A stretch of 64,000 nt of DNA from Lachnospiraceae bacterium (GCA_045531685.1 JAZSEL010000119.1:33436-97435); one strand, 5' to 3'. Positions 28,527 through 34,286 are shown, numbered from the stretch's first letter. Notes: a model not told the origin generated them from the letters alone. Translations and numbers: made by a program.

Positions 28527-28778
28527 TTACATATTTCCCAGCTCTTTTAATCCATTCATCAAATCCAAATCGGACTGCAACACCTTCATATTGGCTGTGA
28601 TTTTTTCCTGTCCCGGTTTCCGGACCGAGATCTCAATAATGGTGCCTTCCTCTATTCCCCCTTTAAAGACCGTAGACAAAAATGCTACAAATTTCGGATG
28701 GTTCCTGGTGAATGTATTTTTGGCACTCATTAACTTCATTAACATTGCAGGGTTCATCATTTCGCTTTTTCCTTTCAA
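28527..28778 (-). CDS. Hypothetical 83-aa protein inside the element
   Basis: The ORF lies between the DUF1667 gene and the recombinase gene on the same strand. No family recognised. Confidence 0.5.
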   Translation of the reverse strand: MKGKSEMMNPAMLMKLMSAKNTFTRNHPKFVAFLSTVFKGGIEEGTIIEISVRKPGQEKITANMKVLQSDLDLMNGLKELGNM

Positions 28779-28797
28779 ACAAATATCTGATACCCGA

Positions 28798-29163
28798 TTA
28801 TACTACTTCCACATTCTTTGTTGCAACCACGTCCACACCGGTTCCTGCAACATTCGCAAGTATCACATCTCCAATATGTACCGGTGCCTTTACACACACC
28901 TCTTTTAATGCCGTCACACATTCAAAGATTTTTCCTTTTGGGATATCCTCCTCTGTCTTTACGGAAACGGCTGCTAATGTTCCGCCTTCTACCTTCACGG
29001 AACTGGTCACAATACGTGTTGGGCTAAGTACCTCTTTTCTGGCATACACATCACCACGCTTGCAGGTATTGCCTGTTACGCTCTTTACCTCATCGTCCTC
29101 TATTTCAACACTGAGCATGCATCCCATCGGGCAGCCGATACAAATCAATTCTCTCTTTTCCAT
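28798..29163 (-). CDS. DUF1667-domain protein (third component of the Firmicute G3P-dehydrogenase-like cluster)
   Basis: 121 aa. The CIGCPMGC...TGNTCKRG motif is typical of DUF1667. Confidence 0.85.
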   Translation of the reverse strand: MEKRELICIGCPMGCMLSVEIEDDEVKSVTGNTCKRGDVYARKEVLSPTRIVTSSVKVEGGTLAAVSVKTEEDIPKGKIFECVTALKEVCVKAPVHIGDVILANVAGTGVDVVATKNVEVV

Positions 29164-29166
29164 ATC

Positions 29167-30429
29167 CTATTCCTCCTCGATTTTTATCGTAATCTGCTGT
29201 AATCCGGAATATGCTTCCAACTGTTCCTTTTTAAGCTCTACCTGCTCCATTTCGCCCGGAGCCATAACCGGACGTTTTCTGTGAAGAATCTGCTCATCAT
29301 TTAAGTATACGGACACATAGCAATTCTTATAAACATCTCCCACACGGAAACGTACTACATGCTTTTCATCCATTCTCTGAGGATTGATTGTCTTTGGTAC
29401 TGTGTAACGTACTCCGCTTGTAGCTACTATCGGAATCTCTGCGCCACCTTCTTTTTTGCCATACAAAACATATTCTGCCGCGCTCTTACCTGCTGCCTCT
29501 GCTTCCTTAGAAACAAAGTCAACTAAATCATGTACATGCAATACATTACCACAGGCAAATACACCCTCTATATTGGTCTCTAAGGATTCGTTTACCATTG
29601 GTCCTGAAGTAACCGGATTCATTTCTACTCCCAATTCTGCGGACAATTCATTTTCCGGAATCAGACCACAGGATAAAAGAAGGGTATCACAGGAATAAAA
29701 CTCTTCTGTTCCCGGAATCGGCTTTCTGTTTTCATCTACCTTTGCCAAAGTAATTCCTTCTACTCTTTCCTTTCCCTTAATGTCAACAACCGTATGACTT
29801 AATTTTAGAGGAATATCAAAATCATCCAGACACTGGACAATGTTACGTTTCAATCCTCCCGAATAAGGAAGCAGCTCTGCTACCACTTTTACCTTGGCAC
29901 CTTCCAAAGTCATTCGTCTTGCCATAATCAGTCCGATGTCACCGGAACCTAAAATTACCACTTCTCTACCCGGTAAGTATCCTTCCATATTAACCAGACG
30001 CTGTGCGGTTCCTGCCGAAAACACTCCCGCCGGACGATATCCCGGAATATTCAAGGCTCCTCTGGAACGTTCCCTGCATCCCATAGCAAGAATTACCGCC
30101 TTTGCCTGAATCTCTAAAATACCGTCTTCCCGATTCATGGCAGTCACTACTTTATCCTTTGAAATGGAAAGAACCATGGTATTTAATTTATAGGCAATCT
30201 CTTCTGCCAATAATTTATCAATAAATCTCTGGGCATATTCCGGTCCCGTTAACTCTTCTTTAAAGGTATGCAGACCAAAACCATTATGAATACACTGGTT
30301 TAAAATACCGCCCAGTTCTTTATCTCTTTCAATGACCAATATGCTTTCCGCACCATTTCTCTTGGCAGATACGGCTGCCGCAAGCCCTGCCGGACCGCCT
30401 CCTATGATTACAATATCGTAATGCAACAT
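29167..30429 (-). CDS. NAD(P)/FAD-dependent (pyridine nucleotide-disulfide type) oxidoreductase
   Basis: YDIVIIGGGPAGLAAA and a second Rossmann motif VVILGSGDIGL. The start is at the ATG with a GGAGG RBS. The longer ORF reaches 30444. Confidence 0.88.
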   Translation of the reverse strand: MLHYDIVIIGGGPAGLAAAVSAKRNGAESILVIERDKELGGILNQCIHNGFGLHTFKEELTGPEYAQRFIDKLLAEEIAYKLNTMVLSISKDKVVTAMNREDGILEIQAKAVILAMGCRERSRGALNIPGYRPAGVFSAGTAQRLVNMEGYLPGREVVILGSGDIGLIMARRMTLEGAKVKVVAELLPYSGGLKRNIVQCLDDFDIPLKLSHTVVDIKGKERVEGITLAKVDENRKPIPGTEEFYSCDTLLLSCGLIPENELSAELGVEMNPVTSGPMVNESLETNIEGVFACGNVLHVHDLVDFVSKEAEAAGKSAAEYVLYGKKEGGAEIPIVATSGVRYTVPKTINPQRMDEKHVVRFRVGDVYKNCYVSVYLNDEQILHRKRPVMAPGEMEQVELKKEQLEAYSGLQQITIKIEEE

Positions 30430-30443
30430 ATCCATTCCTCCCA

Positions 30444-31934: not shown

Positions 31935-33431
31935 TTACTCCTCTTTTGCCCAACTGTAAGCGTATTTTACTGCCTTGTTCCAGCCACGTACTTTCTTTTC
32001 TCTTTCTTCTCCACTAATCTCCGGCTCAAAGATACGGTCAATTCCCGAATTCTGAATTACATCCTCTTTACTCTTCCAATACCCTACTGCCAGACCTGCC
32101 AGATAAGCCGCCCCCATTGCTGTTGTCTCAACACAAATTGGTCTGCTTACCGGTGCATCACTGATATCTGCCTGCATCTGTAACAACAGATTATTGGCAC
32201 AGGCACCACCATCTACCTTTAACGTTCCAAGGGCGATTCCCGAATCTGCTTTCATAGCCTGTAATACATCATTTACCTGATAAGCAAGGGACTCCAATGT
32301 AGCACGGATAATATGGTATTTATTAACCCCTCTTGTAATACCTACCACCGTACCTCTTGCATACTGGTCCCAATGAGGTGCACCCAATCCGGTAAACGCA
32401 GGTACCACATAACAGCCATTGGTATCCTTTACCTTCTTTGCCATATATTCCGAATCCGCTGCACTGTCAATGAACTTCATCTCATCACGTAACCACTGGA
32501 TAGCCGCACCGGCAACAAATATGGAACCCTCCAAAGCATACTCCACTTTACCGTCAAGTCCCCATGCAATGGTAGTTACCAATCCATTATTGGAAAATAC
32601 CGGTTTCTCTCCTGTATTCATTAAAAGGAAACAGCCCGTTCCATAGGTATTCTTTGCTTCTCCTGCTTTAAAACAAGTCTGTCCAAACAGTGCTGCCTGC
32701 TGATCACCGGCTGCTCCCGCAATCGGAATCGGTGCTCCAAAGAACTCCGGATTGGCGTTGCCATAGATGCAACTGGATGGCTTTACCTCAGGAAGCATAC
32801 ACTTCGGAATATCCAATTCTTCCAAAATCTCGTCATCCCATTCCAAGGTATTGATGTTAAACATCATGGTTCTTGACGCATTGGAATAATCTGTTACATG
32901 AACTGCCCCCTTCGTCAATTTCCAAATCAACCAGGTCTCCACTGTTCCAAATAGCAATTCTCCGTTCTCAGCACGTTCTCTTGCACCTTCCACATGTTCC
33001 AAAATCCATCTGACCTTTGTTGCTGAAAAATAGGCATCAATGACAAGTCCAGTCTTCTGTCTGAATTTGTCTGTTAGTCCTTTTTCTTTTAAGGAATCCG
33101 CATACTCTGCTGTTCTTCTGCACTGCCATACGATTGCCGGACAAACAGGCTTACCTGTTTCTTTGTCCCATACAATAACCGTTTCTCTCTGATTGGTGAT
33201 ACCGATAGCAGCAATATCACTTGGCAAAGCTCCAATATTTGCCATAGCTTCCTTTGCTACTTCCAACTGAGTGGACCATATTTCTTCAGCATCGTGACTG
33301 ACCCAGCCCGGTTTTGGAAAGAACTGTGTAAATTCTTTCTGTGCAATACTGCACATCTCCCCCTTCTCATTAAACAGGATGCATCTGTTACTGGTCGTTC
33401 CCGCATCCAATGCCATTATATACTTCCCCAT
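31935..33431 (-). CDS. glpK: Glycerol kinase
   Basis: 498 aa with [27 protein letters not shown] and a FGGY-family C-terminus. Confidence 0.96.
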
Positions 33432-33499
33432 CTTCCTTCTCCTTCTGCCTTTTGTGGATGATAGAAAGTCCCTCCCCCGGACTTTCTACTACCACATAC

Positions 33500-33548
33500 A
33501 AAAAAAGCACCACAAATGAACAACATTTCTGTTGCATTTGCCGTGCTC
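33500..33548 (-). terminator. Leader terminator upstream of glpK (candidate GlpP antitermination target)
   Basis: Minus strand AGCACGGCAAATGCAACA-GAAA-TGTTGTTCATTTGTGGTGCT followed by TTTTTTT, located between glpP and glpK. Confidence 0.65.
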
Positions 33549-33686
33549 TCATCTCTTGGCTTTTTATGTATTTTTCGATGATACTATATCATATTATCTG
33601 TATCATTACAATTTATTTTGCTTGTGTAAATAAATACTGTATACTTTCACAATTTGGGTTACATTCAATTGTATATATTCACTATA

Positions 33687-34253
33687 TTACAAATTCCACA
33701 CTTCCTCATTCGTTGAAGAAATGGCAATAGCTCCTGCATTCAGTGCCGCCAAAACATCTTCCTTATCCTGAATCAGACCACCTGCAATAACCGGAACATT
33801 TAATTTATCTGCAAGCCGGGTTATCATCTTAGGCATCAGCCCGGGCAGTATCTCTACGATATCCGCATACTCTTTGATACGTCCGTTTAACTTATCGAGC
33901 ACCTTGGAATCAATCAGAAAAATTCGATAAATCGTACTCAGTCCTAATTCCTTGGCTCTTCTAAGCTGATCACTGTGGGTAGAGATAATTCCGTCTGCTT
34001 CTGTATAGTTAGCAATAAAGTCCACTGCTTCCACACGGCTGCTTAATCCTGCTACCAAATCCATATGTACTACCGCTGTTTTTCCGGCTTCTTTAATTTT
34101 CTTTACAATATCAACGATATTGCTGATTTCTCCATAAAGAATGAATACAACACCTATATCTCCCAGCGTCAGACAATTAATAAGCCCATCATCATCTTTA
34201 ATCGCTGCCACAATCGGATTGCTTGTTATTGCATCATAAAATTCCTGTTTCAT
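33687..34253 (-). CDS. glpP: Glycerol-3-phosphate-responsive antiterminator GlpP
   Basis: About 188 aa with PIVAAIKDD...IISTH...PVIAGGLI, characteristic of GlpP. The ATG at 34253 has a GAGGGG RBS. The track ORF starts at a GTG at 34277. Confidence 0.88.
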   Translation of the reverse strand: MKQEFYDAITSNPIVAAIKDDDGLINCLTLGDIGVVFILYGEISNIVDIVKKIKEAGKTAVVHMDLVAGLSSRVEAVDFIANYTEADGIISTHSDQLRRAKELGLSTIYRIFLIDSKVLDKLNGRIKEYADIVEILPGLMPKMITRLADKLNVPVIAGGLIQDKEDVLAALNAGAIAISSTNEEVWNL

Positions 34254-34286
34254 AGTATTCCCCTCATTTGCAAACACTCGTTAAGA

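Follow-up and report, generated by a model that had tools for sequence, protein, structure and literature searches.

A stretch of 64,000 nucleotides (nt) from a gut Lachnospiraceae bacterium (GCA_045531685.1, JAZSEL010000119.1:33436-97435; referred to here as the window) carries, inside its division and cell wall (dcw) gene cluster, a recombinase gene and a glycerol operon lying between the two parts of a divided gene that we take to be spoVD. This raises the question of what the 7,930-bp segment is and how the gene that it divides is kept in use. An earlier note on this DNA had offered two answers as alternatives, a minimal recombinase-driven genomic island or a loss of glycerol catabolism from the mother-cell chromosome upon excision. 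The first describes the segment well; the second merely follows from excision in a terminal cell, and nothing suggests that it has a function. We consider it likely that the segment is a non-phage island intervening in spoVD, driven by a large serine recombinase and excised in the mother cell.

From 19.7 to 39.3 kb of the window every gene lies on the minus strand, as do all window features located below. Together these genes form a dcw cluster in the order rsmH, an open reading frame (ORF) of 160 amino acids (aa) that is presumably ftsL, pbpB, the split spoVD, murD, ftsW/spoVE, murA, ftsQ and ftsZ; spoIIGA, sigE and sigG follow ftsZ and are intact. The pbpB gene (35558–37789) encodes a 743-aa class-B penicillin-binding protein (PBP) of the pbpB/ftsI type. 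Between it and murD are two ORFs, each matching half of TIGR02214, the model for stage V sporulation protein D. The 5′ part (34342–35492, residues 1–383) has PBP_dimer and Transpeptidase domains with the SxxK active-site motif and matches model positions 3–351 with 297 bits; its ORF (34287–35492) runs for 18 extra codons into the element and stops at 34287. The 3′ part (25769–26421, in an ORF of 25769–26458) extends from the SCN motif onward, includes KTAT, which is the norm among intact relatives, and matches positions 341–558 with 242 bits. The halves are 7.9 kb apart. When they were joined in silico at the repeat described below, a 597-aa protein resulted that matched TIGR02214 continuously from position 3 to 558 with 542 bits. 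It reads GTKN-SCN-PVFVTTG across the junction, the break falling inside the SxN motif of the transpeptidase domain, and it is colinear with intact homologues (up to 87% identity at 100% coverage) and with the uninterrupted site (attB) of a related genome, L084. The joined protein and the intact relative P0137 (535 bits) both score below the curated cut-off of 688 bits because this lineage is without the C-terminal tail of the model. The interrupted gene is certainly that of a class-B PBP. It may be noted that the 66-nt pbpB–spoVD spacer (35492–35560) holds a strong hairpin, ACAAGACGGGGAAT...ATCCCCGTCTTGT, just 5′ of the spoVD ribosome-binding site, as well as a CATACAAG box resembling a sigma-E −10 element.

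The two copies of a 10-bp repeat, ATTCCTGTAA, mark exactly the two points at which spoVD is broken, one forming the attL core (34342–34351) and the other the attR core (26412–26421). It is this coincidence that counts, the repeat being unremarkable by itself (its 8-bp core occurs five times in the window, against about two expected). Crossover is placed within TCCTGTAA, which is common to attB, attL and attR, and host homology to L084 ends at the attL core. The G+C content and skew of the element are the same as those of its flanks. The empty site was found in L084 (GCA_054286025.1), which has the order mraZ-rsmH-ftsL-pbpB-spoVD-murD-ftsW as in the window. Its DNA aligns to the window up to position 34331 and again from 26419, the two alignments overlapping by 19 nt in the att region of L084. 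For the window species the predicted attB junction is GGAACCAAAAATTCCTGTAACCCTGTTTTTGTG and the predicted attP junction AAATTGCCCATTCCTGTAAGCACGGATTTG. The same 9-bp TCCTGTAAC is found again at the SxN motif of the essential paralogue pbpB (QSCN; 36522–36529), in flanks that are identical to those of attB at 31 of 68 positions. With the same core in different flanks, the recombinase must rely on the site's arms to distinguish spoVD from pbpB.

Both halves of spoVD are under strong purifying selection. For the C-half, the ratio of nonsynonymous to synonymous substitution rates (dN/dS) was 0.024–0.061 at dS of about 1–2.7 (against L003, L010 and L084); for the N-half, dN was 0.11–0.14 against L010 and L084, with dS saturated. 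These values are similar to those for ftsW (dN/dS 0.03–0.05) and murD (0.08–0.12). Neither half has a stop codon or frameshift in the eight genomes compared, and the selection is also seen between the window and L010, in both of which the gene is split. Since the halves are so constrained while split, and since the N-half alone is without a KTG-type motif, spoVD must be rejoined. It could be argued that the insertion inactivated spoVD in a lineage that does not sporulate, so that the halves are a pseudogene and the recombinase a relic. Many of the Lachnospiraceae are said not to sporulate, and the protein collection yielded no intact allele of the window species. Such decay is contradicted by the low dN/dS of the halves (0.02–0.06 at dS of about 1 or more) and their open frames in all eight genomes, by purifying selection on the recombinase (dN/dS 0.10 against L003), and by the intact spoIIGA, sigE and sigG in the window. 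We therefore regard a pseudogene as very improbable.

The recombinase (26490–28259, 589 aa) has Resolvase (PF00239, 1e-21), Recombinase (PF07508, 3e-14) and Zn_ribbon_recom (PF13408, 7e-7) domains, all above their cut-offs, and matches the integrase family phrog_95 (2e-77). Its catalytic Ser10 stands in YNRCSTEE, residues R8 and S10 are invariant among 16 homologues, and the C-terminal tail is winged-helix-like. The gene lies at the element's edge, ending 69 nt before the attR core, with a terminator-like hairpin (26463–26490) just past its stop codon.

Directly upstream of the recombinase is an ORF of 43 aa (28317–28448, beginning MDAERVRKQLLITISELLNEKGFISNDEKNRMK...; 50 aa if a TTG start at 28469 is used), with a hairpin of 15-bp stem (28282–28315) between the two. 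The earlier inventory of ORFs, in which every gene named was found again, had missed this conserved one. Its motif, (K/R)(K/R)QLLLxISE(I/L)Lxx(K/R)GLISxEEKxRM(K/R), was located by motif search directly upstream of the recombinase at 38 of 59 loci, and visual inspection of all short upstream ORFs suggests that nearly all recombinase loci have such an ORF. It is also present in a sister clade (about 35% recombinase identity) that does not target spoVD, as inspected in L074. No known family was matched in Pfam at E up to 10, or in PHROGs, where the 50-aa form was scanned. The position and size of the small ORF match those of the directionality factors of SP-beta, skin and C. difficile skin (PMC6957869, PMC5025042, PMC10747680), and by this analogy its product is a candidate recombination directionality factor.

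A sigma-E-like promoter, TAATAGA followed by a 14-nt spacer and CATAGACA (28501–28529), ends 52 nt upstream of the small ORF. It was scored against ZHATAXX-14-CATACAHT, the sigma-E consensus of B. subtilis. At the equivalent site a score of at least 12/15 was obtained for 23 of 38 related loci against 9–13% of controls, and of at least 13/15 for 12 of the 38 against 1–2% of controls. A better argument than these counts is that TAATATT-N13/14-(C/A)ATAxAxT is conserved upstream of the small ORF in each of three sequence subgroups of the family. Excision might instead be that of an ordinary integrative island, sporadic or answering some other signal, such as read-through from glycerol-induced glpK transcription, spoVD then being restored in a subpopulation only. 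There is no terminator-like site between the DUF1667 and 77-aa genes described below and the small ORF, and excision of the yin element is reported to be growth-phase-dependent and heterogeneous (PMC10747680). A sigma-E-like promoter kept at the same place in three subgroups argues for the sporulation programme, and stochastic excision in the germline would lose the element, which is hard to square with selection on spoVD and with fixation in many species. Sporadic excision thus appears to us improbable.

The absence of capsid, terminase, tail, replication and conjugation genes, remarked on from the sequence earlier, was borne out by PHROGs and Pfam, and a search for degraded phage genes with both collections also found none. 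When eight ORFs of the element were scanned against PHROGs (the 43-aa start variant excepted), no phage family was matched apart from the assignment of the recombinase to phrog_95, and Pfam revealed no relaxase, type IV secretion or replication domain in the window element. The elements of related loci are similar in this respect: no capsid, terminase, portal or tail family is among the 25 commonest Pfam/PHROG families of 139 cargo clusters, and a MobA/VirD2 relaxase occurs in 2 of the 139, in other members of the family. A phage origin was therefore rejected for want of structural genes in the window ORFs and among these commonest families. A tblastn search of 50,697 phage records gave one match of 38%, to MT835561.1. 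This record (L180), deposited from a faecal virome as 'UNVERIFIED: Bacteriophage sp.', proved to be a piece of bacterial dcw DNA with a recombinase of the family, the spoVD C-half, murD and ftsW (20493–26626). Recombinases from genuine phage records reach no more than 29% identity, and IMG/VR contained two relatives of 37% only, neither of them beside spoVD. The element might still be a heavily degraded prophage like skin that picked up the operon later; its recombinase does match a phage-type integrase family, and most described intervening elements are phage-derived (PMC4191935). Against this stand the window element's lack of any gene for phage structure, lysis or replication and the bacterial or distant nature of the recombinase matches in viral collections, and we find a prophage past hardly credible.

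The cargo between the att sites consists of glycerol genes. The genes listed in the earlier note (glpP, glpK, a dehydrogenase with a BFD domain, a second oxidoreductase, a DUF1667 protein and the recombinase) were all confirmed by Pfam and NCBIfam at the positions given there, on the minus strand, and all genes of the element are co-directional with spoVD. First after the attL core is glpP (33687–34252, or to 34277 in a longer call), which encodes a glycerol-3-phosphate-responsive antiterminator of 188 aa from its ATG (G3P_antiterm, PF04309, 9e-59); the gene call is supported by the near-identical contig L085. A promoter and terminator scan detected neither kind of site between the spoVD 5′ fragment and glpP, whose start lies about 90 nt past the core, and glpP is therefore probably read from upstream transcription. 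The glpK leader (33432–33630) begins with a sigma-70-like promoter (33630–33583), after which comes a strong hairpin of the terminator type, with a U-run. The leader RNA folds with −51.9 kcal/mol (z = −7.1 against shuffles), and from its sequence the hairpin is the presumed target of antitermination by GlpP.

The glycerol kinase gene glpK (31935–33431) matches NF000756 with 834 bits and TIGR01311 with 740 bits, both above cut-offs. It is followed by a gene (30444–31880) for a GlpA/GlpO-like FAD-dependent glycerol-3-phosphate dehydrogenase, with a DAO domain (5e-74) and a C-terminal BFD [2Fe-2S] domain (Fer2_BFD, 3e-15), whose best NCBIfam match, type 2 glycerol-3-phosphate oxidase, scores 337 bits, below the cut-off of 460. 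The Pyr_redox_2 FAD/NAD(P) oxidoreductase (29167–30444; PF07992, 2e-33) is presumed to be its partner subunit, and a small cysteine-rich DUF1667 protein (28798–29163; PF07892, 2e-35) is the third conserved member of the dehydrogenase trio; in 80 metagenomic operons the Pyr_redox_2 gene always adjoins the DAO and DUF1667 genes. The ORF earlier called as 83 aa comes next, before the recombination unit. It is present at 28527–28778, but more likely encodes a conserved hypothetical protein of 77 aa from an ATG at 28760 (28527–28760). In L003 this protein is 96% identical at the amino acid and 88% at the nucleotide level. It belongs to a widespread family of 75–80 aa (453 representatives at E≤1e-3) with no Pfam model and no solved structure; no match was obtained in Pfam at E up to 10, in PDB, or in PHROGs, where it was scanned as 83 aa.

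Hallmarks of a GlpP-controlled Firmicutes operon are thus present, namely glpP, glpK, a glycerol-3-phosphate dehydrogenase and a leader terminator, the enzyme functions being those predicted from domains. The description of the operon as complete holds in so far as it is a regulated glp operon, but not for glycerol uptake by glpF, which was absent from the element and from the whole window in a search for MIP homologues. The related operons L050, L166, L168 and L170 have glpF, and its place in related operons is between glpK and the dehydrogenase gene.

An alignment of the recombinase was scanned against one genome per GTDB species. Relatives number in the hundreds, and 80 loci were returned, nearly all from Lachnospiraceae. 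At 56 of the 80 the recombinase, 38–65% identical to that of the window, adjoins one half of a spoVD gene interrupted at the same SC(N) motif. The other 24 are two short contigs and a sister clade of 34–37% identity located elsewhere than beside spoVD (L055, L057, L059–L065, L068, L069, L071, L074–L083; for example L074, 9820–11851). Complete elements in the DNA fetched (n = 38) measure 3.4–9.5 kb, with a median of 5.1 kb, and at nine further loci the N-half was not within 10 kb. At L017 (2946–9756), SecDF, radical-SAM and DUF5722 proteins are encoded within 10 kb upstream of the recombinase and a spoVD N-half was not reached; what intervenes may be very large there or may include housekeeping genes. 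Cultured carriers include Roseburia hominis An869 (L007), Lachnospiraceae bacterium 10-1 (L032), Parablautia intestinalis D8-82 (L045), Lachnospiraceae bacterium 1XD21-87 (L038) and Bacterium 1xD42-87 (L073). At most loci the left end of the element imitates spoVD sequence past the core, as would be expected from an attP resembling attB. The layout of L043 (9855–17907) is reversed, with the spoVD N-half, the recombinase, about 6 kb of cargo and then the C-half. The family is apparently a large, undescribed set of spoVD elements that probably cut themselves out during sporulation.

The commonest cargo, found in 23 species, is an ATP-binding cassette (ABC) transporter of three genes (ABC_sub_bind, BPD_transp_2, ABC_tran), which lie on the opposite strand. 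Elsewhere the cargo includes helix-turn-helix regulators, a sodium:solute symporter, Fic and DUF2726 proteins, and a sugar ABC system together with a chemoreceptor. A conserved motif, TTTAAAGCGCTAAAGTCAAT, precedes the ABC-transporter cargo (L045, 9740–9760; L170, 14580–14600; L038, L042, L047, L070), is kept whether the cassette lies inside split spoVD or beside intact spoVD, and may be an operator or leader element. The glycerol cargo occurs in split spoVD in at least six lineages. L085 is a 99% twin of the window element. L003, whose gene layout is shared by L173 and L174, has a recombinase 73% identical to that of the window; in L010 and L005 the figure is 53%, and in L050, a Roseburia species, 42%. 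L050 has glpF, and a TetR-type regulator in place of glpP, and L172 has a partial form. In the host group of the window itself, the window, L003 and L010 have the glycerol element, L002 has a different one, encoding a DUF927 primase-like protein and a D12 methyltransferase, and L084 has the empty site.

The expectation that the glycerol operon is mobile together with the recombinase was upheld in part. Over 52 loci the identity of the recombinase tracks that of the host (Spearman 0.67, Mantel p = 0.001), which fits mostly vertical inheritance, with two kinds of exception: recombinases 92–93% identical in hosts only 60% identical (L054/L058 versus L066), and recombinases 42–46% identical in hosts more than 80% identical. 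The type of cargo does not go by recombinase similarity, as loci at 64–65% identity to the window recombinase carry other cargo (L001, L002) and loci at 42–53% carry the glycerol operon (L010, L005, L050). When the closest Pyr_redox_2 proteins (85–99% identity) were sampled, three (L173, L174, L172) lay in split spoVD, and L168 had a glp operon of 91% identity at an unrelated chromosomal locus. In L166 and L170 the glp operon stands directly after pbpB and is followed by variable genes or the same ABC cassette; an intact spoVD comes next, and a recombinase is absent. The same start, pbpB and then glp, was seen in L167, L171 and L175–L177. None of the 80 metagenomic operons, whose Pyr_redox_2 proteins are at most 85% identical, lies near spoVD or a recombinase. 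In L166 (5256–14465), glpP overlaps the pbpB stop codon and the operon has glpF; between the operon and spoVD in L166 and L170 (6129–14688) are genes for leucine-rich-repeat proteins, colicin-DNase/WHH toxins, DUF1963 and the Tad pilus, or the ABC cassette. The association of cargo and locus is thus broader than the window element.

From these arrangements it could be proposed that the glp operon is old resident DNA of the pbpB–spoVD junction and that only the unit of small ORF and recombinase is mobile or replaceable, att sites having come to enclose the operon in some lineages while in others it lies next to an intact spoVD. The recombinase-free loci speak for this, no att-site or recombinase remnant having been found in L166 or L170 (at E<1e-3 for the recombinase), and so do the mismatch of cargo type and recombinase similarity and the occurrence of near-identical recombinases in distant hosts and divergent ones in close hosts. 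The window operon, however, lies inside the att sites and must leave with the recombinase, and no single step of site-specific or homologous recombination would move the block from upstream of spoVD to its inside. The operon of L168 at an unrelated locus, and the more distant operons that are never near spoVD, likewise speak against a resident. The hosts of L166 and L170 are 84–87% identical and count as one host group, whereas split spoVD with glp occurs in four (window/L003/L010; L005; L050; L172), so that the recombinase-free arrangement is favoured as the derived one. One route to it would have been excision in the germline, re-insertion nearby and loss of the now useless recombinase. On balance we think it unlikely that the operon is an old resident. 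In the window the operon is physically part of the excisable unit, and it travels only partly with the recombinase.

The cargo sequences give little information on direction, their identity matrix being flat (84–93%). In the cargo dS is lower than in the flanks (for L003, 0.62 versus about 1.0; for L010, 1.3 versus about 2.2), which could reflect codon constraint or more recent exchange. Two further ideas were dropped. The spoVD-borne operons seemed to be a clade of their own, with Pyr_redox_2 at least 89% identical inside elements against at most 85% in the 80 metagenomic loci, but operons of 87–92% were then found beside intact spoVD or elsewhere, and the matrix is flat. Nor need it be supposed for the pair of window and L003 (flanks and cargo 96% identical in protein, recombinase 73%) that the recombinase module was swapped recently, because faster evolution suffices: nucleotide identity falls gradually, to 75% in the recombinase and 78% in murA, and dN/dS of the recombinase is 0.10. 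Real replacements of the recombinase were found elsewhere in the family.

The island we propose would work as follows. In vegetative cells and in the germline, that is, the forespore, spoVD would stay split and the glp operon would serve as an ordinary glycerol pathway. Transcription from the upstream dcw/spoVD genes would probably provide glpP, and glpK with the genes downstream would be read from their own promoter through the GlpP-controlled terminator. GlpK would make glycerol-3-phosphate, which the trio of DAO/BFD, Pyr_redox_2 and DUF1667 proteins would oxidize to dihydroxyacetone phosphate. During sporulation, sigma-E of the mother cell would transcribe the 43-aa ORF and the recombinase, whose products would recombine attL with attR at TCCTGTAA, releasing a circle and restoring the 597-aa SpoVD. 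Because spoVD is needed, the recombination unit and its site would remain under selection, and the cargo parked with them would be stably inherited. Across the Lachnospiraceae the outcome would be a family of small elements whose cargo is interchangeable and mostly metabolic or for transport.

Several points weigh against this account. The name spoVD follows from the best model match, below the 688-bit cut-off, and from the gene's place, behind pbpB in the dcw cluster, where B. subtilis also has it, not from function. The window promoter agrees with the sigma-E consensus at 12 of 15 positions, and that consensus is a B. subtilis one; the 38 loci scored for it are related rather than independent, so that the enrichment overstates significance. 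As no terminator was found between the glp operon and the unit of small ORF and recombinase, vegetative read-through is conceivable. An intact spoVD allele of more than 87% identity was not found for the window species in the protein collection, nor was the attP junction in viral contigs, and excision is inferred from sequence. Finally, the same glp cargo stands beside intact spoVD without a recombinase in another genus (Pyr_redox_2 87–92% identical), and no simple recombination step links the two arrangements.

If the element is indeed an excised island, a gene of cortex synthesis and a major commensal family, with dozens of gut species, would join the list of developmental rearrangements, and intervening sites could hold working metabolic operons instead of phage debris. 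A split spoVD is called as two fragments or as pseudogenes, so the scoring of gut isolates and metagenome-assembled genomes for sporulation may wrongly mark carriers as lacking spoVD. The recombinase, its sites of about 40 bp and the candidate directionality factor of 43 aa would also make a compact integrase system. More tentatively, we suggest as a possibility that spoVD offers, at its SxN site, a 'safe harbour' under developmental protection, in which Lachnospiraceae exchange metabolic and transport operons as cassettes. Sporulation would then select for a recombinase and small-ORF unit retained by the host, and cargo would turn over through transfer, through recombination in the conserved dcw flanks and through occasional fixation beside a restored spoVD. 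A core cell-wall gene would in that case be an integron-like platform shaping the carbon-source repertoires of gut commensals.

Apart from the element, a cobalamin riboswitch (RF00174, 117 bits) was detected at 17764–17949, directly 3′ of sigE and between sigE and sigG. The ORF downstream of it (16566–17132, 188 aa) has no Pfam match.

Sporulation genes described as interrupted are sigK, spoVFB, spoVR, spsM, gerE and yabG (and spoIVFB), mostly in Bacilli and pathogenic clostridia and mostly by phage-derived elements. A natural element intervening in spoVD was not found in the openly searchable literature on spoVD together with intervening elements, serine recombinases or excision; the only insertion in spoVD found there is an artificial secondary site of ICEBs1 (PMC3715440). 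The closest functional parallels are gin, described below, and skin in sigK (SpoIVCA in B. subtilis; CD1231 with the directionality factor CD1234 in C. difficile). As proposed here, skin acts on a mother-cell target; its size and content vary by species, the recombinase alone being shared (bioRxiv 10.1101/2022.02.25.481979; PMC5025042); and its recombinase lies at the edge next to the C-terminal fragment, as in the window. The order of candidate directionality factor, recombinase, attR and C-terminal fragment is that of skin and of the sprB-sprA unit of SP-beta (PMC6957869; bioRxiv 10.1101/2022.02.25.481979). The present elements differ from skin in their target, a cortex transpeptidase and not a sigma factor, in their gut Lachnospiraceae hosts, in their much smaller size (3.4–9.5 kb), in metabolic or transport cargo instead of phage remnants, and in that excision is here deduced from sequence.

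That all known intervening elements are prophages or their remnants, as the earlier note assumed, is contradicted by gin in gerE of Bacillus cereus ATCC 10987, which is without phage genes, like the window element, and is excised by a serine recombinase (PMC5595907). Low in G+C content, gin comprises 31 genes, among them three for recombinases, and a restriction-modification system, whereas the window element has 7.9 kb, one recombinase, a coherent catabolic operon and the G+C content of its flanks. Late mother-cell sporulation genes are the targets of vfbin (spoVFB), vrin (spoVR) and yin (yabG), each of which a site-specific recombinase cuts out (PMC4191935, PMC10747680), but all are described as prophage-like, none lies in spoVD and none is reported with a metabolic operon. 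SP-beta in spsM (attL-sprB-sprA-attR) has the same order of units as found here, with its directionality factor under mother-cell control (PMC6957869, PMC5499854); the small ORF of the window element is without detectable similarity to any named family.

SP-beta is an active phage of 134 kb. Outside phages and sporulation, the fdxN element of Anabaena offers the best NCBIfam match of the window recombinase, XisF (2e-20, far below cut-off), with CcrB second. XisF is a large serine recombinase through which a terminally differentiated cell regains an intact gene, and the germline retains the element. It belongs to another phylum and another developmental programme and acts on other target genes, and the likeness is at the superfamily level only. 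SCCmec-type cassettes (CcrA/CcrB) insert at the 3′ end of rlmH without destroying the gene and are not known to have a developmental role. Like the family described here, they are non-phage and non-conjugative, are moved by large serine recombinases, and use one conserved site for interchangeable accessory cargo.

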